This document shows positions 317 through 51,098 of a stretch of DNA of 64,000 nt, in pieces. A program made the position numbers and the translations under genes. The notes under the pieces were generated by a model. That model had not been told where the DNA came from and did no database searches. It saw only the letters and a program-made list of their open reading frames with translations. Position 1 is the first letter of the stretch. Each line of letters starts with the position of its first letter. Source of the DNA: Bdellovibrionales bacterium (GTDB taxonomy: Bacteria > Bdellovibrionota > Bdellovibrionia > Bdellovibrionales > UBA1609); the NCBI GenBank assembly GCA_965203935.1, contig OZ241921.1:839354-903353 (forward strand), read 5' to 3'.

Positions 317-1087
317 ATGAAAAATTGGCAATGTCCTTATTGCGGACATTTTCAGATTCTGTTAGAAGGAAAGAATTGGAGAGCTATGCGTGAACTTTAT
401 GCGATTGTTCAGATAAGTGAACATAAAAAGATTGGCTTTCAAGTTGAAAGTATTGCTTGTTTAAATAAACCGTGTAAAAAGCTCAGCTTGAAATTCCTTT
501 TGAAGAAAACTTATGAAGACCATCAAGATGGTAAGAGTTTTGACAAAACAATTCAGGAATGGCATTTATTGCCGGATTCCATAGCCAAACCTCAGCCGGA
601 CTATATACCTGAATTTGTCAAAAAAGATTATGAGGAATCTTGTAAGATTGCTCACCTCAGCCCCAATGCGTCCGCAGTTCTTGCCCGCCGATGCCTGCAA
701 AGTATGATTCGGGATTTTTGCAAAATTGAAAAAAGAACTCTTCATGAGGAAATAGAAGAGTTGAAAAAGAAAGTGAATGAGCGTAACATTCCCGGTGTTA
801 CAAAAGAATCTATACGCTCTATTGACAGCATAAGAGAAATGGGCAATATCGGCGCGCATATGAAAGAACCTACAGAAATGTTAATTAATATTGAGCCAAA
901 CGAAGCCCATTTTCTTATTCAGTTGATAGAAGTCTTGTTTAAGGATTGGTATGTCACCCGGTACGACAGGCAACAAAGATTAAAAAACATTCAAGCTATT
1001 GCCACTAAAAAGGGACAAAAAGAATCTGTAAATAAGAAAGGTGTAAATCAAAATCTGAAAAAGTCTGAGGGAGCTGAAATTGATTAA
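317..1087 (+). CDS. DUF4145 (HEPN-like) domain protein with N-terminal CxxC zinc-ribbon
   Basis: N-terminus has CPYCGH. The C-terminal half (LARRCLQSMIRD...IRSIDSIREMGNIGAHM...) fits the DUF4145 pattern R..LE...lh.iR..GN.aaH. This domain is typically found beside or fused to restriction helicase subunits. It lies directly upstream of the helicase-nuclease gene. Confidence 0.6.
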   Translation: MKNWQCPYCGHFQILLEGKNWRAMRELYAIVQISEHKKIGFQVESIACLNKPCKKLSLKFLLKKTYEDHQDGKSFDKTIQEWHLLPDSIAKPQPDYIPEFVKKDYEESCKIAHLSPNASAVLARRCLQSMIRDFCKIEKRTLHEEIEELKKKVNERNIPGVTKESIRSIDSIREMGNIGAHMKEPTEMLINIEPNEAHFLIQLIEVLFKDWYVTRYDRQQRLKNIQAIATKKGQKESVNKKGVNQNLKKSEGAEID

Positions 1088-1183
1088 AAAAACAGCGAAA
1101 GATTTTGGTAAAATGAAATATACAAATCATTATTAAAGCATAAAAATATACCTCATGAATAAATAACAATGGAAATGTAAAGT

Positions 1184-3736
1184 ATGCAAATAAAACATTA
1201 TCAACAAAAAGCGCTTGAGAGGCTTCATCTTTGGTTTGAGGAGCTTAAAAGCTCCCGGATAAAGACCGAAAACACAAGGCGGATTATGGAGGAGCAGGGG
1301 AAAAAGTTTCCCCGACATCTTGAAAATTACCCTCTAAATGCTTGGGATGATCTTAAGGATAAAAAGTCAATTCCCGCTGTTTTGGAGAGAGAGGAAAAAG
1401 TTTTTCCTCAGTATATCTCACGAACAGGGGCAAACGAAGCGCCTGTTCCTCATGTGTGTTTAAAAGTGCCTACCGGTGGCGGAAAAACCCTTCTGGGTGT
1501 GTCTGCTTTTCAATACATGGCCGGGGATACGGGTTTTGTCCTCTGGATTGTTCCTACAAAAGCCATCTATGAGCAAACCTTAAAAGCTTTCAGAACACGA
1601 GAGCATCCTTACAGGCAAATTCTTGAGAATATTTCAGGAGGAAGAGTTAAACTGCTTGAAAAAAACGATCGTTTTACAAAACAGGATGTGGAGAATTATT
1701 TTTGCCTGATGATGCTGATGCTTCCTTCGGCCAACAGACAAAAAAATAAAAATTTTCTTAAGATTTTCAGGGATAGTGGCGACTATAATTCTTTTTTTCC
1801 TGAAGTGGATGATGTGATGGAGAATCAAAACTTTATGAAAAAATATCCTGATTTAGACAAAAACAATTCTGGGGATTGGGTCAGGAACAGTCTGATAAAT
1901 GTTCTGAAACTTATTCGTCCCACCGTTATTTTGGATGAGGCGCACAAGGCTTATGGCAGAGATGATGAAAACAACAAACAGTTTGTGAAATCTGTTAATC
2001 GTCTAAACCCCCGGTTCGTTTTAGAGCTTTCCGCAACGCCCAGGCCGGGCATCAGCAATATTCTTGTCAATATATCGGGGACAGAGTTGAAAACGGAAGA
2101 AATGATAAAACTCCCGGTGGAAATTCACAGTTTCAACAATTCAAATTGGAAACATACATTGGCTGAAACTCAAAAAAAGTTAAATGAACTGGAAAAAGAG
2201 GCTGTACGCCTTTACGCAAAGAAAAATCGCTATATCCGTCCTATGGCGCTTGTGAGAGTAGAGCAAACAGGCAGAGCGCAGATGGATAGAGAAGGTCGGA
2301 TTCACGCGGAAGACGCAAAAAAATATCTGACAAAAAACTTGGCTGTGCCGGAAGAGCAAATACGGATTCAATCTGCAGAAAAAAAGGAGCTTGCAGGAGA
2401 AAATTTAACAAGTGAGGAAAGCTCTGTCCGCTGGATCATCACGAAAGACGCTTTAAAAGAGGGTTGGGATTGCTCTTTTGCTTATATACTTGCACTTTTG
2501 GACAACACGAAAGCAAACACGGCGATTACACAAATGGTGGGGCGAGTGATGAGGCAACCACAAGCGGAGCTGGTTTCAGAGGCGGAGGCGCTTAATCGCT
2601 GTTATATTTATTGCTTTAACAAAAAAGTGGGGGAGGCTGTTCAAAAAGTAAAGGAAAGCCTGCAAAATGAAGGTCTGACCGGTGTGGATCAATTTATTTA
2701 CGGCTATGACGGTAAAGGATCAGGGGAAACAAAAAAGGTCACTTTCCATCGTAGAAAAAAATATAAAAAGTGCAAAATTTTTCTTCCTCAAGTTCTGCAT
2801 AAACAAGGCAGGCGTTGGCGGAATATTGATTACGATCGTCATATCTTGGGCGCTTTGAATTGGAGGAATGTTTTTGTTGGAAACGCTGTCAATTTAGATG
2901 ACAAAGATATAATTCAGGAAATAACAGCTACACTTGGTTTACGGGGGCAGGAGGAAGTTACAACACAAATCATTAACACAGATGAAAATTTGACGCTGGA
3001 TTATTTTGTTCGCAGGCTGGTGGATGTTGTTCCTAACCCTTGGCAGGCTGTTCGTTTGGCGGATAACTTTATTAAAAAGCATAAAAAGCGGGGACATAAT
3101 GTTAACCGATTGCTCAATAACCGGGTGTATTTATCAGAGGTGTTAAAAAAAAGAATTAAAAAAGATGTAGACACAAAAGCTGAAGATGTTTTTCGCGATA
3201 AAGTAAAAAAAGATGAAATTAGATTTCGTCTTGAAACAGACGAGCGGTTAAACTATGAAATGGAGCATTCTTTTTCTGTAAACCTTCCCGTTAAATCCAG
3301 AACTCTTCAAGGAGATCTTGGCAGGGAAATACAATGCAGTCTTTTTGAGCCGGTATTTGAGAGTGCTTTTGATACGGAAATTGAAAAAAACGCCGCAATT
3401 TATTTGGATAAAAGTAATGCCATATATTGGTGGCACAGGATAGCTGCCCGGCAGGCCTATTCCTTGCAAGGCTGGAGACGGCATAAAGTTTATCCTGATT
3501 TTCTGGCTTATCGCCGGGATAATGAAAAGCTTTTTATTATTGAATTAAAAGGCGATCAATTTAGAGGGAACCCGGACACGACATATAAGAAAAATTTGCT
3601 TAAGAAACTGGAGAAAACCTATAAATCCTCTTATGACAGAGGAGAAATGAGAATGAACAGCCCTTCTGCTGTTTTAAGAATGATGTTTGAGGACAGTTGG
3701 GAGCAGGATTTAGGGGCTTTGGTTGGAGGTTTGTGA
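1184..3736 (+). CDS. SF2 (DEAD/DEAH-type) helicase fused to a C-terminal PD-(D/E)xK-like nuclease; Type III restriction Res-like
   Basis: Walker A is VPTGGGKTLLG and motif II is ILDEAHKAY. It is 850 aa long. The C-terminus has YPDF...D-x-EKLFIIELKG, resembling a D..(E/D)xK nuclease core. There is no Mod methyltransferase on either side. Confidence 0.7.
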   Translation: MQIKHYQQKALERLHLWFEELKSSRIKTENTRRIMEEQGKKFPRHLENYPLNAWDDLKDKKSIPAVLEREEKVFPQYISRTGANEAPVPHVCLKVPTGGGKTLLGVSAFQYMAGDTGFVLWIVPTKAIYEQTLKAFRTREHPYRQILENISGGRVKLLEKNDRFTKQDVENYFCLMMLMLPSANRQKNKNFLKIFRDSGDYNSFFPEVDDVMENQNFMKKYPDLDKNNSGDWVRNSLINVLKLIRPTVILDEAHKAYGRDDENNKQFVKSVNRLNPRFVLELSATPRPGISNILVNISGTELKTEEMIKLPVEIHSFNNSNWKHTLAETQKKLNELEKEAVRLYAKKNRYIRPMALVRVEQTGRAQMDREGRIHAEDAKKYLTKNLAVPEEQIRIQSAEKKELAGENLTSEESSVRWIITKDALKEGWDCSFAYILALLDNTKANTAITQMVGRVMRQPQAELVSEAEALNRCYIYCFNKKVGEAVQKVKESLQNEGLTGVDQFIYGYDGKGSGETKKVTFHRRKKYKKCKIFLPQVLHKQGRRWRNIDYDRHILGALNWRNVFVGNAVNLDDKDIIQEITATLGLRGQEEVTTQIINTDENLTLDYFVRRLVDVVPNPWQAVRLADNFIKKHKKRGHNVNRLLNNRVYLSEVLKKRIKKDVDTKAEDVFRDKVKKDEIRFRLETDERLNYEMEHSFSVNLPVKSRTLQGDLGREIQCSLFEPVFESAFDTEIEKNAAIYLDKSNAIYWWHRIAARQAYSLQGWRRHKVYPDFLAYRRDNEKLFIIELKGDQFRGNPDTTYKKNLLKKLEKTYKSSYDRGEMRMNSPSAVLRMMFEDSWEQDLGALVGGL

Positions 3737-3748
3737 AAAATTTTAGGA

Positions 3749-6490
3749 TCATTGTTGGGGGTAATGGTCTGTAGCTCCTAATGAGTATAACAGGCTGACT
3801 AGTTGGTGCTGGTCGTACATTTCAGCTATTTTCAAGACCTTCTTCCAACGATGATCCTTGAGATCTATATCAGCTCCTCTTCTGATCAACAGTTCGATTG
3901 CTTTTATATGCCTCATTCTTACGGCCTCCGTTAAGGCCGTCCACCCATCATCATTCTTGATATTTATATCCGCTCCTCTATCGATCAACAGTTCGATTGT
4001 TATTACTGGATCCTTTTTTGCTGGATCCTTGTCTGCTATTACAGCGAACATCAAAGCTGTGTGCCCTGCCGAGCGAGTTCTGTAATTTACATCAGCTCCG
4101 CTGTCGATCAGGAGTCTGACTGTTTCTGTATGGCCTTCGTATGCGGCCTCCATTAAGGCTGTCCTCCCCCGGTGATAGTCGTCATTTACATCAGCTCCGC
4201 TGTCGATCAGGAGTCTGACTGTTTCTGTACGGCCTTTTCTTGCGGCTAATATCAAGGCCGTAACCTTATAATGATCCCTGGCGTGTATATCAGCTCCTCT
4301 ATTGATCAAGAATCTGACTGATTCTGTACGGCCTTCGCTTGCGGCCTCCATTAAGGCTGTTCTCCCTTCCTCATTTTTGTAGTCTATATAAACCCCTCTA
4401 TCGAGCAACAGTGTGAGGAAGCTGGTACTCTGTTCGTTTCTTGCGAAATCAATCAACATAGCGCCTTGATTCAAAACCCGGCTCCAAGGGGAATCTAAAA
4501 TTTGCTTAAGCTGAGACAGATCCCGGGCTGATGCTATTTCATTTTCAGTAAGCTTTGTTATAAACTCTTTTCTGTAACCTACAGCGTTCTTCCAGTTGCT
4601 CATTTCTCCTATTAAAGCCTCTTTTTCTTTTTCTGAAAATAAAGATGCTTTTTCCTCTAAAAATGAAATATGCCGTGTTGTCTTTTGCGGTGGCTCTATT
4701 GTCAGAGAAAACTCTATTAAAGTGTAAAAAGCCTTCTTTCTTACTTTAAAGGAAAAATCTTTATGTCGCATAACAAAGTTCAGATGATTATCCACATACT
4801 GATCTGACAAATTAAGCTCCTTTATCTGTCTCATAGTAAGAAGATTATTTAAAAATTGTATCTGATCTTGATTGATTGTGGATTTTTCCAAAAGCAACAC
4901 AGGCTCGTATAAAGAGAGAATACTTAATTCGGGGTGGACTTTTCTAAGTGCGGGAATCTCCCCAGGGCTTATTTTAACTCCCCCTAAGGGCACAGCCTCA
5001 AACTTCAAAAGCTGTAGCCGGCTGTAGGCTCTGGAATAACCTGTCGCTGTATATAATAAGTTTTTATACTCATGCTCATGCGGTTTAAAGTTGTTAAGGA
5101 TTATTGAGAGATCAGGCAGAATTTTCCTTCCCACATAATCACTCACCAAAGCCTCATTGGAAAGTCCGTTTAGGTCTCCCACATCCTTTGGCAGGGCCAA
5201 TACATAGCCTTGTTCTTTTAAGCTTAGATAAATCCCCTGTAACACGGCATTAAGCTTTTGCGGTTCTATATTCTGAATTTTATCCACAAAAGCGGTTTTT
5301 ACTGTCAGGCCCTTTGGGCTTTGAGCTTCCCCCAAAACTAAAGTGACATGGCCTGAGGATTCATGACGGCTGTTTGTCAAAGTGAAGTACAAAAAATTAG
5401 GATCCAAAGCCGTCTCAAAATAAGTATTGGTGGCACAGTCTCCACTAAGGCAAGATCTAAAAGGCGACTCCTGAATGGAAAGGGGCCTTAGTCTTAACAC
5501 TTCTGTTCCTCTAACAGCAGTATCCGGCTGATTTTGAATCTCCTCTGTGATTTGAGTTAAATATTTTGTTTTATCCGGTATTTTGGCCTTAAAGTGTGCT
5601 TTAAGCTCTGCAAAATGCCCGGTAAAGCCCAGTTCAAAAGCCAAAATATCCTGTTCGTTTAAAATACTGCGCAAAGCGTTTAAGCTTTCATGTGGGTCTT
5701 TGCTTTTTAAAAGCTCCACCCAAGTTTTATTTCCAAAGCCTGCGGTATGAATTAAATCCGCTATAACCTGAGAAATGTTTTGAATAATTTTTTGACGGGA
5801 CTCACGGGATTCGTAGGATTCATGGGAGAAATGAATAATATCTTTGATGGAGGAGTCAGCTTCTGCTGTTTCTAAAGAATGTCTTATCTTTTCCAAAGCT
5901 TTGTATAAGGCAATAGTTCTTTCCCGGTAAGGCTTTGAGTCATCTTTTATAAAATCGCGAAGTTTTTTATTTAAAGCTGTGCTGTCCAAATAGGCTGTAA
6001 GATCTTTATTGCGCTTTTTCCTAAGAGCCTTTTTTTCCTCTTTGCTTAAAGAAGAGTCTTCTATCTTGCTGAATCCCAGTGTTTTAGCCCAAAAGCCCAA
6101 GTTTGCCTCCACCTGAAACAGGCTGTTTCGTAATCTGGAGCTTTCGTTTCGGAAAGAGGAAATAAAGTCTTTAAGACTGTTAGGTGTTTCTTTTTTTGTT
6201 ACAGTAAACTCCAGAATTTGCTCTCTTACAATCAGCTTGGAAAGCTCAGGATATTGGTTTAAGATATTTAGGACATCCTGTAAGGAATGAAATCTTACAA
6301 CATCTCTCGGATAAGGGGTTTTGTTTGTGAGATAGAGTTTAAAGAGCGGGTCTTGCCCTTTACTTAAAGCGAGCTGTTTGGTCATGGCCTCATAAAAGGA
6401 ATCCGGATCAGAAAAGGCTTCTTCACAAATATTTGCATAAGCCGAGCCAACAGCAAAAATAAAAACAGCTATAAAAGCGCGCATAATCAT
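3749..6490 (-). CDS. secreted ankyrin-repeat protein, paralogue 1 (large conserved N-domain plus about 7 C-terminal ANK repeats)
   Basis: Signal peptide MIMRAFIAVFIFAVGSAYA. The C-terminus has repeated G.TALM.AA..GH.E.V.LLI..GADVN units typical of ankyrin repeats. It is 86-90% identical over most of its length to the gene at 7387-9912. Confidence 0.75.
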   Translation of the reverse strand: MIMRAFIAVFIFAVGSAYANICEEAFSDPDSFYEAMTKQLALSKGQDPLFKLYLTNKTPYPRDVVRFHSLQDVLNILNQYPELSKLIVREQILEFTVTKKETPNSLKDFISSFRNESSRLRNSLFQVEANLGFWAKTLGFSKIEDSSLSKEEKKALRKKRNKDLTAYLDSTALNKKLRDFIKDDSKPYRERTIALYKALEKIRHSLETAEADSSIKDIIHFSHESYESRESRQKIIQNISQVIADLIHTAGFGNKTWVELLKSKDPHESLNALRSILNEQDILAFELGFTGHFAELKAHFKAKIPDKTKYLTQITEEIQNQPDTAVRGTEVLRLRPLSIQESPFRSCLSGDCATNTYFETALDPNFLYFTLTNSRHESSGHVTLVLGEAQSPKGLTVKTAFVDKIQNIEPQKLNAVLQGIYLSLKEQGYVLALPKDVGDLNGLSNEALVSDYVGRKILPDLSIILNNFKPHEHEYKNLLYTATGYSRAYSRLQLLKFEAVPLGGVKISPGEIPALRKVHPELSILSLYEPVLLLEKSTINQDQIQFLNNLLTMRQIKELNLSDQYVDNHLNFVMRHKDFSFKVRKKAFYTLIEFSLTIEPPQKTTRHISFLEEKASLFSEKEKEALIGEMSNWKNAVGYRKEFITKLTENEIASARDLSQLKQILDSPWSRVLNQGAMLIDFARNEQSTSFLTLLLDRGVYIDYKNEEGRTALMEAASEGRTESVRFLINRGADIHARDHYKVTALILAARKGRTETVRLLIDSGADVNDDYHRGRTALMEAAYEGHTETVRLLIDSGADVNYRTRSAGHTALMFAVIADKDPAKKDPVITIELLIDRGADINIKNDDGWTALTEAVRMRHIKAIELLIRRGADIDLKDHRWKKVLKIAEMYDQHQLVSLLYSLGATDHYPQQ

Positions 6491-6904
6491 CCTCTGTGAA
6501 AAAATTCCGACTTTTCACTATAGCAGACTATGTAAAAAAACTGTAGAAAAAGGGCTTATTTGTTGGGGAGCGGGAGTGAAAAATAAGCCAAGTATGTAAA
6601 AAATACACAAAAGCACACTTTTTTACAGTTTATCAAACTGAAGAAAATTAAAAAAATATATTCCTTACAAAAATCTGTAAATATTCAAAATCACTTATTC
6701 TGTCATGTCCTTGACCTCCATTTTTTGGCTATCTTTTGAAGAGAAGGTAAAAATAGGGGCCACTCTAAAAATCATTTATTTACCGCATTGCATTGTGTGA
6801 AATTTGGAGGCTTGATTTTGCCAAAATTCCTTTGTCTCTGCAAATAGATATGTTAAATTCTTTTTTATTGATGAAATACAAAAACTTCAAAACGAAAGCT
6901 GACA

Positions 6905-7290
6905 AAAAAGCCAGTAAAAATCTGAGGGAGCTTAAATTGATTAAAAAAACAGGACTATGAATCATATACTGAAAAAACAAAATCATACCCTTTGGCTATG
7001 AAAAAAAGCAAAATGAAATACAAAAATCACTATTACGGTTTTCCGGTTATGACCAAGCAGGAAACAGAACTTCAGTTTCCTTTTTTAAAATCTGTAAGTT
7101 TGCTTAGTAACAATGTGATTTCCGCTGAGCATTCTTTTATGGCCGATAAACCTTTATCTACAACCGGCCTGAAGGGTTTTAATGCGAAAAAAATCAAATC
7201 CACAAACTATAAGCAAATAACAATGGAAATATAATGTTTGAGGATACTTGGGAGCAGGATTTAGGGGGGTTAGTTGGAGGTTTGTGAAAA
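6905..7290 (+). pseudogene. decayed duplicate of the 3' end of the DUF4145 gene, the helicase-upstream region and the helicase 3' end (deletion derivative)
   Basis: 6921-6955 matches 1063-1095 (tctgagggagctgaaattgattaaaaaaacag). 7010-7035 and 7210-7235 resemble 1110-1185. 7235-7285 encodes MFEDTWEQDLGGLVGGL*, which matches the helicase C-terminus MFEDSWEQDLGALVGGL* at 3683-3736. Confidence 0.55.
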
Positions 7291-7386
7291 ACTTTCTGAT
7301 AATTGTTGGGGGTAATGGTCTTTAGCTCCTTTTTCGCGTAGCAGTTTGATTATTTCTATATGGTCACGCTCTACAAGAAAGGATAA

Positions 7387-9912
7387 TCAAAGAATGTCCG
7401 CCCTCGCCCCCCATTGATCCTTGGCCTCTGTATCAGCTCCTTCGTCAATCAACAGTCTGACTGTTTCTATATGGCCTGCGATTGCGGCCTCCATCAAAGC
7501 CGTGCGCCCCGACTTATCCTTAGCGTTTATATCAGCTCCTTCGTTAATCAACAGTCTGATTGTTTCTATATGGCCTTCGCTTGCGGCCTCCATCAAAGCC
7601 GTGCGCCCCGATTTATCCTTAGCGTTTATATCAGCTCCTTCGTTAATCAACAGTCTGACTGTTTCTATACGGCCTGCGATTGCGGCTTTCATCAAGGCTG
7701 TTTTTCCCTGTTCATCCTTGGCGTTTATATCAGCTCCTCTGTTAATTAATATTCTGACTGTTTCTATATGGCCAAGCATTGTGGCCACCATCAAGACTGT
7801 TCTTCCTGTCTCATCTTTGTAGTCTATATAGGTCCCTCTATCCAAGAGCAGTGTAAGAAAGTTGATGTCCTGTTTGTTGTATATGAGATAAGTCCACATA
7901 ACCCTTGGATCCAAAATCTGATTCCAAGGGGAATCTAAAATTTGCTTAAACTGAGACAGATCCTGGGCTGATGTTATTTCATTGTCAGTAAGCTTCGTTA
8001 TAAACTCTTTTCTGTAACCCACAGCGTTTTTCCAGTTGCTCATTTCTCCTATTAAAGCCTCTTTTTCTTTTTCTGAAAATAAAGATGTTTTTTCCTCTAA
8101 AAATGAAATATGCCGTGTTGTCTTTTGCGGTGGCTCTATTGTCAGAGAATACTCTATCAGAGAATATTCTATCAGAGAATACTCTATTAAAATGTAAAAG
8201 GCCTTCTTTCTTACTTTAAAGGAAAAATTTTTGTTTTGCATAACAAAGTTCAGATGATTATCCACATACTGATCTGACAGGTTAAGCTCCTTTATCTGTC
8301 TCATAGTAAGAAGATTATTTAAAAATTGTATCTGATCTTCATCTTTTGTGGATTTTTCCAAAAGCAACACAGGCTCGTATAAAGAGAGAATACTTAATTC
8401 AGGGTGGGCTTTTCTAAGTGCGGGAATCTCCCCAGGGCTTATTTTAACTCCCCCTAAGGGCACAGCCTCAAACTTCAAAAGCTGTAGCCGGCTGTAGGCT
8501 CTGGAATAACCTGTCTCTGCATATAATAAGTCTTTATACTTATGCTCATGCAGTTTAAAATCGTTAAGGTTTTTTGAGAGATCAGGCAAAATTTCCCTTC
8601 CCACATAATCACGCACTGAAGCCTCATTGGAAAGTCCGTTTAGGTCTCCCACATCCTTTGGCAGGGCCAGTATATAGCCTTGTTCCTTAAGGCTTACACT
8701 AATTCCCTGTAGCACGGCCTTAAGCTTTTGCGGTTCTATATCCTGAATTTTATCCACAAAAGCGGTTTTGACTGTCAGGCCCTTTGGGGTTTGAGCTTCC
8801 CCCAGCGCTAAAGTGACATGGCCTGAGGATTCATGACGGCTGTTTGTCAAAGTAAAGTACAAAAAATTAGGATCCAAAGCCGTCTCAAAATAAGTATCGG
8901 TGGCACAGTCTCCACTAAGGCAAGATCTAAAAGGCGACTCTTGAATGGAAAGTGGCCTTAGTCTTAAAACTTCTGCTCCTCTAACAGCAGTATCCGGCTG
9001 ATTTTGAATCTCCTCTGTGATTTGAGTTAAATATTTTGTTTTATCCGGTATTTTGGCCTTAAAGTGTGCTTTAAGCTCTGCAAAATGCCCGGTAAAGCCC
9101 AGTTCAAAAGCCAAAATATCCTGTTCGTTTAAAATACTGCGCAAAGCGTTTAAGCTTTCATGTGGGTCTTTGCTTTTTAAAAGCTCCACCCAAGTTTTGT
9201 TTCCAAAGCCTGCGGTATGAATTAAAACCGCCATGACTTGAGAAATATTTTGAATAATATCTTTGGTGGAGGAGTCAGCTCCTGCTGTTTCTAAAGAATG
9301 TCTTATCTTTTCCAAAGCTTTGTATAAGGCGACAGTTCTTTCCCGGTAAGGCTTTGAGTCATCTTTTATAAAATCGCGAAGTTTTTTATTTAAAGCTGTG
9401 CTGTCCAAATAGGCTGTAAGATCTTTATTGCGCTTTTTCCTAAGAGCCTTTTTTTCCTCTTTGCTTAAAGAAGAGTCTTCTATCTTGCTGAATCCCAGTG
9501 TTTTAGCCCAAAAGCCCAAGTTTGCCTCCACTTGAAACAGGCTGTTTCGCAATCTGGAGCTTTCGTTTCGGAAAGAGGAAATAAAGTCTTTAAGACTGTT
9601 AGGTGTTTCTTTTTTTGTTACAGTAAACTCCAGAATTTGCTCTCTTACAATCAGCTTGGAAAGCTCAGGATATTGGTTTAAGATATTTAGGACATCCTGT
9701 AGGGAATAATCAGTGTCTCTTTGGTAAGGGGTTTTGTTTATGAAATAGAGTTTAAAGAGTGGTTCCTGCCCTTCCTTTAAAACAAGCTGTTTGGTCATGG
9801 CCTCATAAAAGGAATCCGGATCAGAAAAGACTTCCTCACAAGGGCCTGTTGCATAAGCTGGAAACAGGTAGCAGAAAAAAAGTACAGCTTTTAAACCGCG
9901 CATAATAATCAT
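7387..9912 (-). CDS. secreted ankyrin-repeat protein, paralogue 2 (tandem duplicate of 3749-6490)
   Basis: The ORF track gives 7387-10146. The start was reassigned to the ATG at 9912 (MIIMRGLKAVLFFCYLFPAYA), which aligns with the signal peptide of paralogue 1. C-terminal ANK repeats are present. It contains an in-frame 15-bp x3 repeat (IEYSL x3) at 8143-8187. Confidence 0.7.
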   Translation of the reverse strand: MIIMRGLKAVLFFCYLFPAYATGPCEEVFSDPDSFYEAMTKQLVLKEGQEPLFKLYFINKTPYQRDTDYSLQDVLNILNQYPELSKLIVREQILEFTVTKKETPNSLKDFISSFRNESSRLRNSLFQVEANLGFWAKTLGFSKIEDSSLSKEEKKALRKKRNKDLTAYLDSTALNKKLRDFIKDDSKPYRERTVALYKALEKIRHSLETAGADSSTKDIIQNISQVMAVLIHTAGFGNKTWVELLKSKDPHESLNALRSILNEQDILAFELGFTGHFAELKAHFKAKIPDKTKYLTQITEEIQNQPDTAVRGAEVLRLRPLSIQESPFRSCLSGDCATDTYFETALDPNFLYFTLTNSRHESSGHVTLALGEAQTPKGLTVKTAFVDKIQDIEPQKLKAVLQGISVSLKEQGYILALPKDVGDLNGLSNEASVRDYVGREILPDLSKNLNDFKLHEHKYKDLLYAETGYSRAYSRLQLLKFEAVPLGGVKISPGEIPALRKAHPELSILSLYEPVLLLEKSTKDEDQIQFLNNLLTMRQIKELNLSDQYVDNHLNFVMQNKNFSFKVRKKAFYILIEYSLIEYSLIEYSLTIEPPQKTTRHISFLEEKTSLFSEKEKEALIGEMSNWKNAVGYRKEFITKLTDNEITSAQDLSQFKQILDSPWNQILDPRVMWTYLIYNKQDINFLTLLLDRGTYIDYKDETGRTVLMVATMLGHIETVRILINRGADINAKDEQGKTALMKAAIAGRIETVRLLINEGADINAKDKSGRTALMEAASEGHIETIRLLINEGADINAKDKSGRTALMEAAIAGHIETVRLLIDEGADTEAKDQWGARADIL

Positions 9913-10277
9913 ACATAACACTCCGTAAAAAAAGGCTGTTAATTGTCTGCAAGCAAAGCTCATTTGGGACGGAATATCAGAGAAACGGGAGGCCAAATTG
10001 TTGGCCTCCCGCCCGTCACCGTTTGAGATTTTGAGGCAAATAACAGAGCTTTTCACTATAGCAGAATATGTAAAAAAACTGTAGAAAAGGGGCTTGTTTT
10101 GTAGGGCGCGGGAGTGAAAAATAAGCCAAGTATGTAAAAAATACACTAAAATACGCTTTTTTTACAATTTGACTAAAATGTTATTTAAGTCTTTGCTGTA
10201 AAAGTCCGAAAGAAGATAATAAGCTTAAAAACAGCTAAAAGCACGACCTTAGTCCATTTAAAAAAAGGAGAAATATC

Positions 10278-26946: not shown

Positions 26947-28335
26947 ATGAAAAAATCAGTAAAAGCGTTTGTGTTTATTATTACCACAGTTCTTGCCTCA
27001 CTACCGGTTGTTGGCAATTCCACTGATAGCTATTCACCACCGGCTGTCAGCGATTTGTCTACAGAGCAAATAGCGATTGTTTCACGGCTTTCCACCGTCC
27101 TGCCTGAAAAAAGAAAGTTTTACACTCATTTTTATTATAATTTGGACTGGGCCATCACCGGCCAATCAGGGCCGGGAATTTTATCAAGCAGTCTTTGGCA
27201 CGCCTTTCAAAAAGGCAAACTAATAGATGACAATAAAAACTTTGAAAAGGGTGAGCAGAACTTTAAAGAGGCTGTGCAGACAGCGTTTTCAGAAACAGAA
27301 AGAACACCCGCAGGAAAAGGAATATATGCTTCAGAAAGTATTATATCCTCCGCTTCGCATACTAATACTCTTGTGGAGGTGGAAGTGGCGCAGGGGTTAA
27401 GATATCTGGATTTAACAGATTTTAAGGTGACGAATGCATTAAAAAGAGCCGGCATTAGTGTACAGGATGTGTACAAGCTTGGTGATGTGTCACTTAAAAT
27501 GACGAACCACTTTTCAGCGAAGAGGCAATGGGTTTTGAAAGATATGGAGAAAGTGTCACTTTCCCCTTTTAGGTTGAGTGCAAAAAGCTTGGTGGAGATT
27601 CAGAATTTACTGCGCCCTATATTTAGTGGTAATTTTAAAAGCTCTCAAGACGATGCAGTCAGAATTATCAAACTGCTGATCCATAACTCCAAATCAGAGG
27701 TGGAACAGCTGATTAGAGTGTTCAATACCACTCCTGCTTTATGGAACCACTTAAACGCTGATTCACAGGATCGGGTGATAGACTCTTTGGTAAGAAACCA
27801 TGTCGAATCAGTGGCGGGGGGAATAGTGTTGTTCCAGAGCTTTCGTAGCGCCGCCACAAATCATGAAAGTGTAAGCATGCTGTTAGAAGGTTTCACAACT
27901 CATAAGCTGACCCCTAAAACCAATGGAGACCAGCTCCCTCAGACCTTTGAGAACACAGGTGTAATTTTTTCTGAAAAGCATGTACTAAGAATATTATCAG
28001 AGGCCAAAAGGCATATTTACTCAGTGGCGGAGGGAATATTTTTAATAAGCTATATGGATTCCGCAAGTCTTTCCGGCCCCATGCAAACACTGCTGGAAAG
28101 GGTATTTCACAAAACACTTTCGCGTGTTAAATCTCTTGAGGATGGCATTTTATTGTTGGACTTCTTAAAGGAAAAGCGACCTCATTTATATATCGTTAAA
28201 AGGGGTGATATTATAGACAAAATATCTCCTTATGTAGATAATATGTCGGTTATGAGACAATTGTCCAATCATATTAGTGATGCGTCTGTTGCGGATATAC
28301 TTCGCCGGCAAAAATGTAGCTTTGGCTTTGAATAA
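26947..28335 (+). CDS. secreted hypothetical protein (462 aa)
   Basis: Signal peptide MKKSVKAFVFIITTVLASLPVVGNS. No known catalytic motif. Confidence 0.5.
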   Translation: MKKSVKAFVFIITTVLASLPVVGNSTDSYSPPAVSDLSTEQIAIVSRLSTVLPEKRKFYTHFYYNLDWAITGQSGPGILSSSLWHAFQKGKLIDDNKNFEKGEQNFKEAVQTAFSETERTPAGKGIYASESIISSASHTNTLVEVEVAQGLRYLDLTDFKVTNALKRAGISVQDVYKLGDVSLKMTNHFSAKRQWVLKDMEKVSLSPFRLSAKSLVEIQNLLRPIFSGNFKSSQDDAVRIIKLLIHNSKSEVEQLIRVFNTTPALWNHLNADSQDRVIDSLVRNHVESVAGGIVLFQSFRSAATNHESVSMLLEGFTTHKLTPKTNGDQLPQTFENTGVIFSEKHVLRILSEAKRHIYSVAEGIFLISYMDSASLSGPMQTLLERVFHKTLSRVKSLEDGILLLDFLKEKRPHLYIVKRGDIIDKISPYVDNMSVMRQLSNHISDASVADILRRQKCSFGFE

Positions 28336-28377: not shown

Positions 28378-29271
28378 CTACAAAAAATTTTTTAATTCTT
28401 TTCTTATAAATTCCGGCTGGGCAAAGGCGGATTGGTGCAGACAGCTGTTGTAGTAAGATAAATTCCAGCCCTTGGTTTCTTTTTTAGTTTTTTCTTTCTT
28501 AAAATCCTTTAAAGGGTGATATTTTTTGGAAGCCAAAGCAAAAGACCAAAGCCCCCCCGGATACACCGTGTTGCTGTAGTTGTATAAAGCGGTTATAGGA
28601 AACACAGACTTAAGAGATTGCAGGATAAATTTTTGTGTCGCTATCTCAAAAAAAGGGGACTCCGCCTGAACCACCAATATCCCTTCATCGGACAGAAGGT
28701 GAAATATATCCTTGTAAAAAGCTTTGCTAAACAAATCCCGGGCCGGCCCGAAAGGATCGGTGGAGTCCACTAAGGCCACATCAAACTTTTGATTTGTTTG
28801 TTTTACGAACTTAACTCCGTCTTGAACTTTTAAGTTTAGTCTTGGATCTTGAAAAGAACAGGATATTTTTGGGAAATATTTTTTAGCTGTTTCCACAACC
28901 ATTTTGTCAATCTCCACCAGCACACAATGAGTAAGGTTTTTGTGGCGAAGCGCCTCGCGGGCGGCCCCTCCATCCCCCCCTCCGATGATCAGCGCTTTTT
29001 CAGGTTTGGGGTGCGTAAACAAAGGAACATGAGCCATCATTTCGTGGTACACAAATTCATCTTTCTCACTTAACATGACAATGCCGTCGTTAAGCAGGAT
29101 GCGCCCGTGCCCTTTAGTTTCCACCACATCAATATACTGATAGGCGCTTTTGCCGGAAAACAAAACTTTCCGACATCGAAAGCGTGTGCCGTAGTAATTT
29201 CTGTGGCGCTCCTCCACCCATAGATCCATGGGTGAAGTTTTTTCGTCCCAGTGTGGTTTTTTTTGTGTCAT
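28378..29271 (-). CDS. speE: spermidine synthase
   Basis: YHEMMAHVPLFTHPKPEKALIIGGGDGGAAREALRH and VEIDKMVVETAKKYFP match the spermidine synthase signature. The start overlaps the stop of the upstream AdoMetDC gene. Confidence 0.9.
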   Translation of the reverse strand: MTQKKPHWDEKTSPMDLWVEERHRNYYGTRFRCRKVLFSGKSAYQYIDVVETKGHGRILLNDGIVMLSEKDEFVYHEMMAHVPLFTHPKPEKALIIGGGDGGAAREALRHKNLTHCVLVEIDKMVVETAKKYFPKISCSFQDPRLNLKVQDGVKFVKQTNQKFDVALVDSTDPFGPARDLFSKAFYKDIFHLLSDEGILVVQAESPFFEIATQKFILQSLKSVFPITALYNYSNTVYPGGLWSFALASKKYHPLKDFKKEKTKKETKGWNLSYYNSCLHQSAFAQPEFIRKELKNFL

Positions 29272-30248
29272 ATTGCTTTTTCTCCTTTGCAGTTTAATTC
29301 AAAAGCCGGGCGGGGTGTATCAAAGGATGTAAAAAAACCGGAAAAATCCACTTTGTATCCACACTCCAAGTTTCTGCTGAAATAAGAAGATCGGACAAAA
29401 GAGGAATCTTTCGGGTGTTTAAAGCTTTCCTCCTTCTCGTTAAGTCCGGCGGAAAACACAATAATATCAAAACTTAAGGGCTTGAAAACAGAAAGTACGG
29501 TTGTTGCGATTTCAGTTACGGATATGTCCATGATATTGGTTTCAAAGCTGACATAAAAGCCCGGCTCCTGAGGGGTTATGTGAATGGTGTAATATTGTGA
29601 CTTTCCCACAAGCCCGTTTAGGGAGTAGCCCATCGGCTCAAAAAAGTGGTCGTCCACTTGTGCATTGTCAAAAATCTTGCTTAAATTTAAGTGATTTCTT
29701 ATTTGCTCCGCTGAAGAGGCTGTAAAAAAAAGGTTTTTTATATGATCGTCCAGATCATACATTAGTATTTCAATGGTGCGGTCGGGCCGGCCCGATTGGT
29801 AACAGCCGTCGGAATGAAAAAGATAAAAATGATGTTCATCCGGCGCGCCAAACAGGTAGGCTTTGCCTTTTATTTTTTTATTGATTTTTCTTAAATCGTC
29901 CATAAAAGAGCTGTTTTGTTTATAAGGAAAAAACTCGTTTTTTCGCTGATAAAACAAAAGCTCTGTATCCGATTTTTTTAAACTTCGAGAAAGCTGTAAA
30001 AGGGCTTTAACCAAAGAGGTTTCTCCGCAGGTGAGCATAAGAAGACGATGATCCCAGACAAACAAACTGGATTCAGAAAGTATATAAGCGTCACAAAAGG
30101 AATTGGAAAAGCGGGACACTAAACGCGCGCCCGCGCGGGCGCAAAGTTTTTTCCAAAAAGCTTCGGGCCGGTTTCTCAAAGGTTCCCTTACCGGTGACAA
30201 CACAAGCTCCAGTTTTTTTTCAGAACCTTCAAATAAAAGTTGTTTCAT
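29268..30248 (-). CDS. S-adenosylmethionine decarboxylase proenzyme, eukaryotic type (class II, Glu-Ser autoprocessing site)
   Basis: FEGSEKKLELV matches human FEGTEKLLEVW. AYILSESSLFVWDHRLLMLTCGETSLVKAL matches [30 protein letters not shown], including the ESS pyruvoyl-forming site. TIEILMYDLD matches TLEILMSELD. GYSLNGLVGKSQYYTIHITPQEPGFYVSFETN matches [32 protein letters not shown]. Confidence 0.85.
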   Translation of the reverse strand: MKQLLFEGSEKKLELVLSPVREPLRNRPEAFWKKLCARAGARLVSRFSNSFCDAYILSESSLFVWDHRLLMLTCGETSLVKALLQLSRSLKKSDTELLFYQRKNEFFPYKQNSSFMDDLRKINKKIKGKAYLFGAPDEHHFYLFHSDGCYQSGRPDRTIEILMYDLDDHIKNLFFTASSAEQIRNHLNLSKIFDNAQVDDHFFEPMGYSLNGLVGKSQYYTIHITPQEPGFYVSFETNIMDISVTEIATTVLSVFKPLSFDIIVFSAGLNEKEESFKHPKDSSFVRSSYFSRNLECGYKVDFSGFFTSFDTPRPAFELNCKGEKAI

Positions 30249-32697: not shown

Positions 32698-32728
32698 TCA
32701 GCTCCCCCCTTGGGGGGATTTTCTTTGT

Positions 32729-34686
32729 CCCGACTTCGACACAACACTATGAGTTAAAAAATATTTTGAGGTTTTTTTAGACCAGCCGGGTTGTTTTTGT
32801 TTGGTTTTGAGTGGTAAAATCAGTAAAAATTAAAGTTGTGTTCCCGACCCCGACCTTTACTTCCTCGATCTCTTCTGGAACAGTAAAAACATGTTTATCA
32901 AGGTCACTGAAAAAATCTCAAGCAAAAACCGAAAAATTAAATCTTTCCGGATTATGGAATCGGTACGCAAAGGCTCAAAAACCATTCATAAAACAGTGCG
33001 CTTTGTGGGATCCTCCACGAACCCGGATATCATCAAGTCTTTGGAACAGATATCTCATAATCTGATCGTAAAGCTCAGCAATGACCGACAGCCCGCCCTT
33101 CCCGGCATGGCCAAAGTCATCTACAGCAAAGAATCTCAGTACATAAACAAAAAACCAAAACAACAGAAGAAAAAACAAAAGCCTGTTTCTATCTTCTCCC
33201 TTAAAAAGCCACAGGAAACAGCACGCATCCAGCACGGCATTAAAGGAGTATGCGGGGCTGTCTATGAACAGTTAGGCTTTCATACCCTCATACAAGACAC
33301 CAACAAAGATCAACAATGGAACAACATCTTAAAATACTGTGTCCTTGCCAGAGTGGCCCACCCGGATTCCAAAAGAAAAACAGTAGACACTTTGGCAGAG
33401 GATTTTAACGAGACTGTTCCTTTGGAAAAAATGTATCGCATGATGGACAGGCTTTATCCACGCATAGAAAAAGCAAAAGACATGGCGGCCAAAAACACCC
33501 TGAGCCTGTTTAACCAAGAAGTGGATATTCTTTTCTTTGATGTCACCACCCTTTACTTTGAAAGCTTTGAAGAAGACGATACAAGACAGTTCGGCTTCAG
33601 CAAAGATAAAAAGTTCAACGAAACACAAGTGGTCTTAGCCCTTATCACCAACCAAGAAGGTCATCCCCTAAGCTATGAGCTGTTTCCCGGAAGCACAAGC
33701 GAAGGATCCACCCTTATTGCCACAGTTCAGAGATTAAAACAAAGATTTACAGTCAAAAACGCCGTATTGGTGGCCGACAGAGCCATGTTTAATGAGCAAA
33801 ACCTTACACTCATGGAGGAAGAGGGGATTCAATATGTGGTGTCCGCCAAGTTAAAGTCCCTGCCCAAAAGCAAGAAAGATGAGATTTTAGACAAAAACTT
33901 AAAATCTTCCACTGTCTCAGAAGACCCACACAGGGTAAAGATAAAAGAGCTTGAGTATAAACAAAGAAGACTCATTATAAGCCACTCAGAAAAAAGAGCC
34001 AAAAAGGATGAGGCGGACAGACTAAGACTCATTAAAAGACTGATGAAAAAAGTAAAGAACAAGCAAATCCCCATAAAAAGCCTTATCCCCAATCATGGCA
34101 CCAAAAAATACATCACAGTTCAAAAAACCAAAGCTACACTCAATGAACAAAAAATAGCTGAAGACAGCCGTTGGGACGGCCTGCATGGACTTATTACCAA
34201 CATGAAAGATAAGCCCCCCCAAGAACTCCTCACCCGATACAGACAGCTCTGGAAGATAGAAGAGGCTTTTCGTGTGTGCAAACACACTCTTAAGATGAGA
34301 CCCATTTACCACTGGAAGAGGAAAAGAATCGAGGCTCATATTGCTATATGCTTCTTGGCTTACTCGCTTTCTTACACTATGAAACACAGAATGGAGCAAA
34401 GAGGACTGAACTTCAGTATCCGAAAGATGAGAGAGATTTTAAAAAGAGATCAATACAGTATTATAGAGGATGCAAATAAAAATCTCTATCGTATGCCCTC
34501 TAAATCCACAGAACCGATACAGGCTATATACGAGGCTTTGGGGCTTAAAAGAACTTCTCAATTTATTCCTTTTTCCTAAGCCCTGTTAAACTCCCTTCTT
34601 AAATGTTCTTACAAGATGTGTGGCCCCAAGAATTTATAAGTTATTGATATCACTCACTTAATGCCTTGCGTTGTGTCGAAGTCGGG
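32729..34686 (+). mobile_element. IS4/IS1634-family insertion sequence, copy 1 (1958 bp, about 19-bp terminal inverted repeats cccgacttcgacacaacac)
   Basis: IRL cccgacttcgacacaacac at 32729. IRR gcgttgtgtcgaagtcggg ends at 34686. A single 562-aa transposase ORF lies inside. Confidence 0.8.
32891..34579 (+). CDS. DDE transposase, IS4 superfamily (IS1634-like)
   Basis: LFFDVTTLYFES (D1, DxT..yFE), VLVADRAMFN (D2) and YRQLWKIEEAFRVCK (Y-2-R-3-E-6-K signature). The 562-aa length is typical of the IS1634 group. Confidence 0.75.
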   Translation: MFIKVTEKISSKNRKIKSFRIMESVRKGSKTIHKTVRFVGSSTNPDIIKSLEQISHNLIVKLSNDRQPALPGMAKVIYSKESQYINKKPKQQKKKQKPVSIFSLKKPQETARIQHGIKGVCGAVYEQLGFHTLIQDTNKDQQWNNILKYCVLARVAHPDSKRKTVDTLAEDFNETVPLEKMYRMMDRLYPRIEKAKDMAAKNTLSLFNQEVDILFFDVTTLYFESFEEDDTRQFGFSKDKKFNETQVVLALITNQEGHPLSYELFPGSTSEGSTLIATVQRLKQRFTVKNAVLVADRAMFNEQNLTLMEEEGIQYVVSAKLKSLPKSKKDEILDKNLKSSTVSEDPHRVKIKELEYKQRRLIISHSEKRAKKDEADRLRLIKRLMKKVKNKQIPIKSLIPNHGTKKYITVQKTKATLNEQKIAEDSRWDGLHGLITNMKDKPPQELLTRYRQLWKIEEAFRVCKHTLKMRPIYHWKRKRIEAHIAICFLAYSLSYTMKHRMEQRGLNFSIRKMREILKRDQYSIIEDANKNLYRMPSKSTEPIQAIYEALGLKRTSQFIPFS

Positions 34687-34771
34687 AAAAAAGCAAAAAA
34701 AAGCGCAAAAATGTCACCACTGTAAGAAAAATAAACACTTTTGGCCGGGTGCTTGGATTTTTCAGGCGGTG

Positions 34772-34943
34772 AAAAAAATAAAAAAATACAGTAATTTCAA
34801 TAATTTACGATATTTTTTTGAAAACAACAAACTTTCGGCCCCTGTTTTGCATCATTATAGACAAAAAACCATTTTATCAGGAGGTAAAAAAAATGAAAAA
34901 ATCAGGTATCCTTATATTGTTTATTGCTTATTGTCACTGTTCT
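34772..34943 (+). repeat. 172-bp direct repeat (left copy) flanking IS copy 2; contains RBS plus first 17 codons of the gene at 37014
   Basis: Identical to 36893-37064. It includes aggaggtaaaaaaaatgaaaaaatcaggtatccttatattgtttattgcttattgtcactgttct, then runs directly into the IS left end. Confidence 0.8.
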
Positions 34944-36892
34944 CCTGACTTCGACACAACACTATGAGTTAAAAAATATTTTGAGGTTTTTTTAGACCAG
35001 CCGGGTTGTTTTTGTTTGGTTTTGAGTGGTAAAATCAGTAAAAATTAAAGTTGTGTTCCCGACCCCGACCTTTACTTCCTCGATCTCTTCTGGAACAGTA
35101 AAAACATGTTTATCAAGGTCACTGAAAAAATCTCAAGCAAAAACCGAAAAATTAAATCTTTCCGGATTATGGAATCGGTACGCAAAGGCTCAAAAACCAT
35201 TCATAAAACAGTGCGCTTTGTGGGATCCTCCACGAACCCGGATATCATCAAGTCTTTGGAACAGATATCTCATAATCTGATCGTAAAGCTCAGCAATGAC
35301 CGACAGCCCGCTCTTTCCGGCATGGCCAAAGTCATCTACAGCAAAGAATCTCAGTACATAAACAAAAAACCAAAACAACAGAAGAAAAAACAAAAGCCTG
35401 TTTCTATCTTCTCCCTTAAAAAGCCACAGGAAACAGCACGCATCCAGCACGGCATTAAAGGAGTATGCGGGGCTGTCTATGAACAGTTAGGCTTTCATAC
35501 CCTCATACAAGACACCAACAAAGATCAACAATGGAACAACATCTTAAAATACTGTGTCCTTGCCAGAGTGGCCCACCCGGATTCCAAAAGAAAAACAGTA
35601 GACACTTTGGCAGAGGATTTTAACGAGACTGTTCCTTTGGAAAAAATGTATCGCATGATGGACAGGCTTTATCCACGCATAGAAAAAGCAAAAGACATGG
35701 TGGCCAAAAACACCCTGAGCCTGTTTAACCAAGAAGTGGATATTCTTTTCTTTGATGTCACCACCCTTTACTTTGAAAGCTTTGAAGAAGACGATACAAG
35801 ACAGTTCGGCTTCAGCAAAGATAAGAAGTTCAACGAAACACAAGTGGTCTTAGCCCTTATCACCAACCAGCAAGGTCATCCCCTAAGCTATGAGCTGTTT
35901 CCCGGAAGCACAAGCGAAGGATCCACCCTTATTGCCACAGTTCAGAGATTAAAACAAAGATTTACAGTCAAAAACGCCGTATTGGTGGCCGACAGAGCCA
36001 TGTTTAATGAGCAAAACCTTACACTCATGGAGGAAGAGGGGATTCAATATGTGGTGTCCGCCAAGTTAAAGTCCCTGCCCAAAAGCAAGAAAGATGAGAT
36101 TTTAGACAAAAACTTAAAATCTTCCACTGTCTCAGAAGACCCACACAGGGTAAAGATAAAAGAGCTTGAGTATAAACAAAGAAGACTCATTATAAGCCAC
36201 TCAGAAAAAAGAGCCAAAAAGGATGAGGCGGACAGACTAAGACTCATTAAAAGACTGATGAAAAAAGTAAAGAACAAGCAAATCCCCATAAAAAGCCTTA
36301 TCCCCAATCATGGCACCAAAAAATACATCACAGTTCAAAAAACCAAAGCCACACTCAATGAACAAAAAATAGCTGAAGACAGCCGTTGGGACGGCCTACA
36401 TGGACTTATTACCAACATGAAAGATAAGCCCCCCCAAGAACTCCTCACCCGATACAGACAGCTCTGGAAGATAGAAGAGGCTTTTCGTGTGTGCAAACAC
36501 ACTCTTAAGATGAGACCCATTTACCACTGGAAGAGGAAAAGAATCGAGGCTCATATTGCTATATGCTTCTTGGCTTACTCGCTTTCTTACACTATGAAAC
36601 ACAGAATGGAGCAAAGAGGACTGAACTTCAGTATCCGAAAGATGAGAGAGATTTTAAAAAGAGATCAATACAGTATTATAGAGGATGCGAACAAAAATCT
36701 TTATCGTATGCCCTCTAAATCCACAGAACCGATACAGGCCATATACGAGGCTTTGGGGCTTAAAAGAGTGTCTGACTTTGTATCCGGTTCCTGAAGTTTT
36801 ACCGGACTTCAGTCTTAAAATGTGTGCCCCCGTAAAAACTCATAAGTATATGATATCACTCACTTAATGCCTTGCATTGTGTCGAAGTCGGG
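34944..36892 (+). mobile_element. IS4/IS1634-family insertion sequence, copy 2 (1949 bp)
   Basis: IRL cctgacttcgacacaacac at 34944. IRR gcattgtgtcgaagtcggg ends at 36892. Near-identical to copy 1 except the last ~100 bp before the IRR, which also changes the transposase C-terminus. Confidence 0.8.
35106..36794 (+). CDS. DDE transposase, IS4 superfamily (IS1634-like), copy 2
   Basis: About 99% identical to 32891-34579 until the last 10 codons (..LGLKRVSDFVSGS versus ..LGLKRTSQFIPFS). Confidence 0.75.
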   Translation: MFIKVTEKISSKNRKIKSFRIMESVRKGSKTIHKTVRFVGSSTNPDIIKSLEQISHNLIVKLSNDRQPALSGMAKVIYSKESQYINKKPKQQKKKQKPVSIFSLKKPQETARIQHGIKGVCGAVYEQLGFHTLIQDTNKDQQWNNILKYCVLARVAHPDSKRKTVDTLAEDFNETVPLEKMYRMMDRLYPRIEKAKDMVAKNTLSLFNQEVDILFFDVTTLYFESFEEDDTRQFGFSKDKKFNETQVVLALITNQQGHPLSYELFPGSTSEGSTLIATVQRLKQRFTVKNAVLVADRAMFNEQNLTLMEEEGIQYVVSAKLKSLPKSKKDEILDKNLKSSTVSEDPHRVKIKELEYKQRRLIISHSEKRAKKDEADRLRLIKRLMKKVKNKQIPIKSLIPNHGTKKYITVQKTKATLNEQKIAEDSRWDGLHGLITNMKDKPPQELLTRYRQLWKIEEAFRVCKHTLKMRPIYHWKRKRIEAHIAICFLAYSLSYTMKHRMEQRGLNFSIRKMREILKRDQYSIIEDANKNLYRMPSKSTEPIQAIYEALGLKRVSDFVSGS

Positions 36893-37064
36893 AAAAAAAT
36901 AAAAAAATACAGTAATTTCAATAATTTACGATATTTTTTTGAAAACAACAAACTTTCGGCCCCTGTTTTGCATCATTATAGACAAAAAACCATTTTATCA
37001 GGAGGTAAAAAAAATGAAAAAATCAGGTATCCTTATATTGTTTATTGCTTATTGTCACTGTTCT
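36893..37064 (+). repeat. 172-bp direct repeat (right copy) flanking IS copy 2
   Basis: Identical to 34772-34943. It continues into the intact gene. Confidence 0.8.
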
Positions 37065-50775: not shown

Positions 50776-50852
<77 letters not shown>

Positions 50853-51098
50853 ATCAACCAAAACAGCCTTTTTAAGCAAATTTAACATAAAAAATCTACT
50901 TGACTAATGTAATTTTTACACCCTATCTCTTATTTTCGCCATTTTTAGTATTTTTATGACTTTATATGTGATATAAGAACTTCATGTTTGTGTCCTTTGT
51001 CCTTGACACCTAATTTTTAGGCTGTCTTCTGAAAAGGAGGTAAAGTGCAAAAGTTTTCAAAAATAGGGGCCACTTCAGTAAGAGAGGGAATAGACATT

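Follow-up and report, generated by a model that had tools for sequence, protein, structure and literature searches.

The Ank effectors of Legionella and Coxiella (AnkX/LegA8, AnkG, AnkH and others) join an N-terminal domain, catalytic or of unknown function, to ankyrin (ANK) repeats. They are multi-copy and fast-evolving, and are substrates of the type IV secretion system (T4SS) without Sec signal peptides. Eis of Mycobacterium tuberculosis is a secreted GNAT that leaves its producer and modifies the proteins of another cell, acetylating host proteins; it has two GNAT domains and an SCP2-like domain, canonical coenzyme A (CoA) motifs, and neither ANK repeats nor a signal peptide. The weapons of predatory bacteria are, to our knowledge, known almost only from Bdellovibrio bacteriovorus and are mainly cell-wall hydrolases. 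The stretch of 64,000 nucleotides analysed here (the window; contig OZ241921.1 of a Bdellovibrionales bacterium) holds three paralogous genes for proteins with a Sec-type signal peptide, a conserved N-terminal module with a predicted GNAT-fold core, and C-terminal ANK repeats. They belong to a multi-copy, unannotated family of such proteins that is restricted to Bdellovibrionota, and are read, with a probability of roughly 45%, as exported, ANK-targeted, acyl-transferase-like enzymes built on a helical-GNAT-helical module.

The proteins resemble the Legionella and Coxiella effectors in architecture, copy number and fast evolution, but their N-terminal domains are unrelated and they carry a Sec signal. 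No full-length match to the NCBIfam equivalogs for Dot/Icm Ank effectors was found; the ANK part alone matched, with 23-95 bits against cut-offs of 450-1400. With Eis they share the predicted fold, Eis-like structures being the top fold matches, but no sequence similarity. Within the same phylum, Bd3460 of B. bacteriovorus is described in the abstract of PMC4686830 as an ankyrin-fold self-protection inhibitor that binds the DD-endopeptidases Bd3459 and Bd0816; its target is thus bacterial, in the predator's own periplasm. The abstract mentions no enzymatic domain in Bd3460, whereas the family described here has a conserved N-terminal module of 660 amino acids and no conserved neighbour; bd3460 appears to adjoin bd3459, judging from locus-tag numbering only. 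RARP-1 of Rickettsia is a Sec-dependent ANK protein that is reported as periplasmic (bioRxiv 10.1101/2022.02.23.481736). Besides Bd3460, nothing relevant was found in the literature on the family itself, on ANK or GNAT effectors in Bdellovibrionota, or on eukaryote-associated reduced Bdellovibrionota.

In the compact N-terminal module, a highly divergent GNAT-fold domain sits between two helical ones. The AlphaFold2 (AF2) model of residues 20-680 of paralogue 1 has a predicted local distance difference test (pLDDT) score of 91.7 and a predicted template modelling (pTM) score of 0.89. The core is mixed α/β with the element order characteristic of the GNAT fold, β1-α1-α2-β2-β3-β4-α3-β5-α4-β6(-β7). 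Its best structural matches are the Eis-like structures 2hv2 and 3n7z (top), aminoglycoside acetyltransferases (AACs), Naa80, NatD/Naa40 and RimI, and the GNAT fold of the core is a well-supported prediction. The flanking helical domains (about 295 and 160 amino acids) gave no structural match. The leading Gln of motif A is kept in the β4-α3 loop, which reads Q406 (99%)-N-(V/I)-(P/S)-x-x, and an Asn/Tyr-containing stretch opening α4, SN......Y, recalls motif B. The core is probably a very divergent GNAT homologue. It differs from GNAT N-acyltransferases in lacking sequence or profile similarity to them, in the missing glycines of motif A, in two conserved Cys in α1 and the α1-α2 loop, in its position between two large helical domains and in its signal-peptide export. 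Because the sequence link and the glycines are missing, the domain is filed as a GNAT fold and not as a demonstrated acyl-CoA N-acyltransferase. A previous examination of the DNA letters (the sequence-only reading) had found nothing that the N-terminal domain matched. This holds at the sequence level, where no significant match was found in Pfam, NCBIfam or the PDB (the last searched with the single sequence and with a profile), but not at the level of the fold. A weak match to DUF885 in one relative (P0093, E = 9e-4, below the cut-off) was absent in 10 other N-terminal domains and was put down to chance.

The conserved block ESPFRSCLSGDCAT..YF..ALDPNFLYFTLT....SSGHVT.(V/A)LG is identical in the three copies save at the wildcard positions, in agreement with the block described earlier. 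It runs from the end of β1 (E341) through α1 (SPFRSC), the α1-α2 loop (GDC), α2 and β2 (YFTLT) to β3 (SSGHVTLVLG). The residues R335, L337, E341, C352, T370, T372, S378, L386 and G387 (numbering of paralogue 1) are invariant in an alignment of 100 sequences. Those conserved in at least 90% of the same sequences include C22, R333, S338, S342, P343, F344, R345, C347, D351, Y357, F358, D363, P364, N365, Y368, G380, F401, D403, K404 and Q406. A conserved Cys and a conserved His had been proposed as a possible catalytic centre; of the two, only the Cys is conserved in the wider family. Cys352 is present in 191 of 191 proteins and Cys347 in 188 (Y, D or R in the other three). The His of SSGHVT is found in 111 of the 191, with Gln in 63 and other residues in 17 (55-58% His and 33-35% Gln), and the second His of the block is conserved in 54%. 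These frequencies do not support a Cys-His catalytic pair. The Cys-His hydrolase that the sequence-only reading had in mind, papain-like or transglutaminase-like, is contradicted by the variable His and by the predicted GNAT fold; the papain-like arrangement, an α+β fold with the Cys at the N-terminus of a helix packed on a β-barrel, was not found. The mature forms of the three paralogues each hold exactly three Cys, at the positions of C22, C347 and C352, and three is also the modal number in the wider family. With an odd number of conserved Cys, at least one thiol must be free; probably two of the three are joined in a disulfide and the third is the free one.

The signal peptides attributed to all three paralogues were confirmed by inspection. 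Each has the n-h-c pattern of a Sec-type signal (basic n-region, hydrophobic core, AxA-type cleavage site), and nearly all full-length relatives share it (about 90 inspected). The N-termini thus predict that the proteins cross the inner membrane via the Sec signal peptide. A conserved Cys (Cys22 in paralogue 1, kept in at least 90%) lies 1-10 residues past the cleavage site. A lipoprotein reading of this Cys was rejected because the residues at -3 to -1 (for example G-P-C, N-I-C and L-T-C) form no lipobox.

The profile search that had been suggested did reveal further members, almost only in Bdellovibrionota. A word-indexed search gave 122 relatives of the N-terminal domain, and an exhaustive hidden Markov model (HMM) search of 1.84 billion cluster representatives with the core gave 309 (clusters at 50% identity). 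Since 290 of the 309 were found at E<=1e-10, the family is sharply bounded, without relatives in the twilight zone. Within it, sequences diverge down to 30% identity. The 73 loci in GTDB species representatives are all in metagenome-assembled genomes (MAGs). Nearly all are labelled Bdellovibrionales, Pseudobdellovibrionaceae, Bacteriovoracaceae, Oligoflexia or Bdellovibrionota, and two are probably mis-binned. Several loci lie on closed chromosomes of 1.3-2.2 Mb, with 2-7 copies per genome. The window, too, comes from a genome of this kind: its citrate synthase matches that of a 2.03-Mb contig with 100% identity, and the nearest named relatives are Bdellovibrionales/Oligoflexia MAGs. The C-terminal parts of the relatives are almost always ANK, in proteins of up to 2116 amino acids; one subgroup combines a short ANK stretch with an FGE-sulfatase-like domain. 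No conserved neighbour gene was found across the 73 loci.

Pfam found ANK as the only domain in the three paralogues, always C-terminal (Ank_2, E = 3e-66 in paralogue 1 and 1e-38 in paralogue 2; Ank, E = 4e-11 in paralogue 3). The five to seven repeats counted earlier are borne out as strong arrays of tandem 33-residue repeats in paralogues 1 and 2, but paralogue 3 is weak, with one clear repeat and one or two degenerate ones. The 99-bp repeats of paralogue 1 have 71% matches in Tandem Repeats Finder (TRF), and the array of paralogue 2 (Table 1) has been recently expanded or homogenised. Two open reading frames (ORFs) of 111 and 133 amino acids lie antisense to the latter array (7414-7822, plus strand); they are by-products of the 99-bp periodicity and not likely genes.

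Paralogues 1 and 2 are 83% identical as proteins and 87% identical over 2444 nucleotides, and a block upstream of the genes is duplicated as well. This agrees in part with the recent tandem duplication proposed before, but the divergence is a mosaic. Residues 22-680 show a synonymous divergence (dS) of 0.10-0.15 and a ratio of nonsynonymous to synonymous divergence (dN/dS) of 0.3-0.44, compared with a dS of 0.5-0.66 and a dN/dS of 0.7 for the signal peptide and ANK part. Either gene conversion is keeping the N-terminal domains alike, or the ends have been swapped. An extra paralogue in the 2.03-Mb sister genome (P0001) is 99% identical to paralogue 1 up to residue ~680 and then continues into a different, shorter ANK array. 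The gene call for the orthologue of paralogue 1 in the same genome is split in two (P0216 and P0217, 580 and 284 amino acids), owing either to a frameshift in a pseudogene or to an error in long-read assembly. Paralogue 3 is 47% identical to paralogue 1.

The fold is modelled; for catalysis, donor, target and delivery we infer the following. After Sec export, the GNAT-fold domain would catalyse reactions like those of acyl- or aminoacyl-transferases, and the ANK array would recruit the protein target. The residues R335, E341, C352, T370, T372 and S378, together with the near-invariant C347, D351, D403, K404 and Q406, fall in α1, the α1-α2 loop, β2-β3 and β4. In GNATs these elements make up the acceptor side and, with β4, one edge of the donor cleft. 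Acyl-CoA is cytoplasmic and there is none outside a cytoplasm, so an exported GNAT would act inside another cell or with another donor. The enzyme may thus be delivered into a prey bacterium or a eukaryotic host cell, or may rely, in the periplasm or envelope, on a donor other than acyl-CoA. As a speculation, the free thiol could be an acyl-thioester nucleophile or covalent acyl acceptor, or it could be part of a redox switch that holds the enzyme inactive until a reducing compartment is reached. The paralogue expansion, the rapid turnover of ANK repeats and the swapping of modules fit with variable external targets. A bolder extension, which we hold to be doubtful, is an unrecognised class of Cys-dependent GNAT-fold acyltransferase effectors sent by uncultured, small-genome Bdellovibrionota into prey or eukaryotic hosts, in which a swappable ANK array would pick the target and a safety catch, a disulfide formed in the periplasm, would open in the reducing, acyl-CoA-containing cytoplasm of the victim.

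Several results weigh against an acyl-transferase-like enzyme. None of 26 core sequences matched the GNAT clan in Pfam (E<=10), and the core profile gave no link to a GNAT in the PDB. A comparison with the profile of E. coli RimI in hhalign gave a probability of 1.4%, a weak comparison because the RimI alignment was shallow (at least 83% identity) and built from the best 120 matches. Motif A (Q/RxxGxG/A), which binds the CoA pyrophosphate in the β4-α3 loop of GNATs, has no conserved Gly in the family. The missing glycines and the lack of sequence similarity to active GNATs would suit a GNAT-like pseudo-enzyme or ligand-binding scaffold, with the ANK repeats and the helical domains doing the binding, for example as a periplasmic regulator or as a self-protection inhibitor of the bacterium's own prey-directed enzymes. 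A Sec signal without a further recognisable secretion signal likewise suits residence in the periplasm, for which Bd3460 and RARP-1 are ANK precedents. Such a non-catalytic role is nevertheless considered somewhat unlikely. Within one pocket-forming region lie nine invariant residues and some 20 that are nearly so, most of them polar (R, E, C, T, S, D, K, Q), a pattern that fits a catalytic or specific ligand site better than a scaffold. Furthermore, family members have no conserved partner gene alongside, unlike bd3460, and both their presence in several copies and the fast change of their ANK repeats point to external targets that vary.

The sequence-only reading had favoured an effector aimed at eukaryotes and made by a host-associated or intracellular bacterium; its ANK repeats would engage host proteins. 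The small genomes, dense in ANK and LRR (leucine-rich repeat) genes, speak for it, but the lineage is Bdellovibrionota, no evidence of a eukaryotic host is seen here, and no report of reduced-genome Bdellovibrionota inside eukaryotes was found in the literature. ANK repeats serve against bacterial targets in the same phylum (Bd3460), no signal or context of a type III secretion system (T3SS) or T4SS was seen, and the hydrolase part of the proposal falls with the variable His and the GNAT fold. Eukaryotic targets are therefore regarded as unlikely; the architecture of exported ANK proteins described earlier stands, but the Cys-His hydrolase and the intracellular setting do not. It is very improbable that the domain is no transferase but a metal- or cofactor-binding redox protein, in which the three Cys ligate a metal with D351 or E341. 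The presence of exactly three conserved Cys and none besides, and the CxxxxC spacing beside an invariant acidic residue, are in its favour, as are weak SufE matches in three cores (E~0.06), which are probably due to chance. C347 is, however, replaced in 3 of the 191 proteins, and a third of the members have Gln in place of the sole His that could be a ligand. We also know of no metal centre in the GNAT fold at the position of the conserved Cys.

Table 1. Positions of the paralogous genes, their parts and adjoining features in the window
Feature	Position	Strand	Description	Basis
Paralogue 1	3749-6490	-	913 aa; signal peptide, helical domain, GNAT-fold core, helical domain, 6-7 ANK	ORF, Pfam, AF2
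Paralogue 1, signal peptide	6434-6490	-	residues 1-19; cleavage between ...GSAYA and N, then conserved Cys22	inspection
Paralogue 1, N-terminal mostly helical domain	5549-6433	-	residues 20-314; no Pfam match	AF2 secondary structure
Paralogue 1, predicted GNAT-fold core	4934-5548	-	residues 315-519; β1-α1-α2-β2-β3-β4-α3-β5-α4-β6-β7	
Paralogue 1, conserved block	5330-5470	-	residues 341-387	per-column conservation on secondary structure
Paralogue 1, C-terminal helical domain	4451-4933	-	residues 520-680	AF2
Paralogue 1, ANK array	3752-4450	-	residues 681-913; 99-bp repeat array 4091-4416	Pfam, TRF
Paralogue 1, upstream block	6511-6631	-	shared with upstream block of paralogue 2	blastn
Paralogue 2	7387-9912	-	841 aa; identical to P0002	
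Paralogue 2, predicted GNAT core	8404-9018	-		
Paralogue 2, conserved block	8800-8940	-		
Paralogue 2, ANK	7390-7899	-	ends mid-repeat	
Paralogue 2, 99-bp ANK repeat array	7408-7794	-	3.9 copies, 85% matches	TRF
Paralogue 2, upstream block	10049-10170	-	matches 6511-6631, 89% identity, ~120 nt	blastn
N4/N6 DNA methylase	49953-50774		adjoins tRNA-Val(GAC), near paralogue 3	
tRNA-Val(GAC)	50777-50853	-	immediately upstream of paralogue 3, downstream of the methylase	
Paralogue 3	51099-53918	+	939 aa	
Paralogue 3, predicted GNAT core	52095-52955	+		
Paralogue 3, conserved block	52170-52310	+		
Paralogue 3, degenerate ANK	53430-53915	+		

The ORFs of the three paralogues are present where they had been placed, the first two on the minus strand, which had not been given. 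The true start of paralogue 1 is likelier at 6484 than at 6490, because GAGG lies 6 nt upstream and a public gene call of the same protein (P0213) begins there, at M3. A longer ORF, 7387-10146, is paralogue 2 with a GTG extension; the signal peptide begins at 9912. In GC content the three genes (0.40-0.42) do not depart from the window as a whole (0.41). The C-terminal helical domain of paralogue 2 contains 3.1 copies of a 15-bp unit (8142-8187), which give IEYSL three times where paralogue 1 has one copy; this is a length change of the microsatellite type. In paralogue 3 a helical segment of ~50 amino acids is doubled internally at residues ~158-241 (LDASALN..RAFI.DP.RDYREKVMVLYKAL twice), a duplication that TRF did not detect in the DNA. 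The same protein has a Tyr/Asp/Glu-rich insertion of ~80 amino acids after β6 of the GNAT-like core (residues ~480-560).

Paralogues 1 and 2 are flanked by clpP-clpX-lon on one side and, on the other, downstream of paralogue 1, by a restriction-modification cassette of a ResIII-type, restriction-type helicase and a DUF4145 gene (317-3736). In a sister genome (locus L074, 10448-13150) an N6/N4 methylase, RE_MjaI and the same DUF4145 gene stand beside the paralogue; the cassette thus differs between close strains while the DUF4145 gene is kept. The site of tRNA-Val and paralogue 3 may be an integration hot spot, and the surroundings of all three paralogues are plastic regions. Near the ANK genes, a protein of 1205 amino acids with a signal peptide and no Pfam match (14678-18295, minus strand) adjoins an LRR protein of 488 amino acids with a lipoprotein-like N-terminus, …LLITGGC (18319-19785, minus strand), and the two are candidates for further exported binding proteins. 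The ORFs 39604-42522 (minus), 26947-28335 (plus) and 58390-59922 (plus), of 972, 462 and 510 amino acids, also have hydrophobic N-termini and match no Pfam family. Two tandem copies of an insertion sequence (32725-34701 and 34940-36907) are 97% identical, each with a DDE_Tnp_1 transposase of 562 amino acids. At 28378-30248 (minus strand) a spermidine synthase gene adjoins one for an S-adenosylmethionine decarboxylase of 326 amino acids (Pfam PF01536), a family that we take to be known chiefly from eukaryotes.

The family is large, multi-copy, lineage-restricted and wholly unannotated, and its members are candidate prey- or host-modifying enzymes of uncultured, small-genome Bdellovibrionota. 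With its predicted fold, it would widen the sequence space of GNATs to proteins without the glycines of motif A, with a conserved Cys pair and with an extracytoplasmic location, and it is a concrete subject for structural and biochemical studies.

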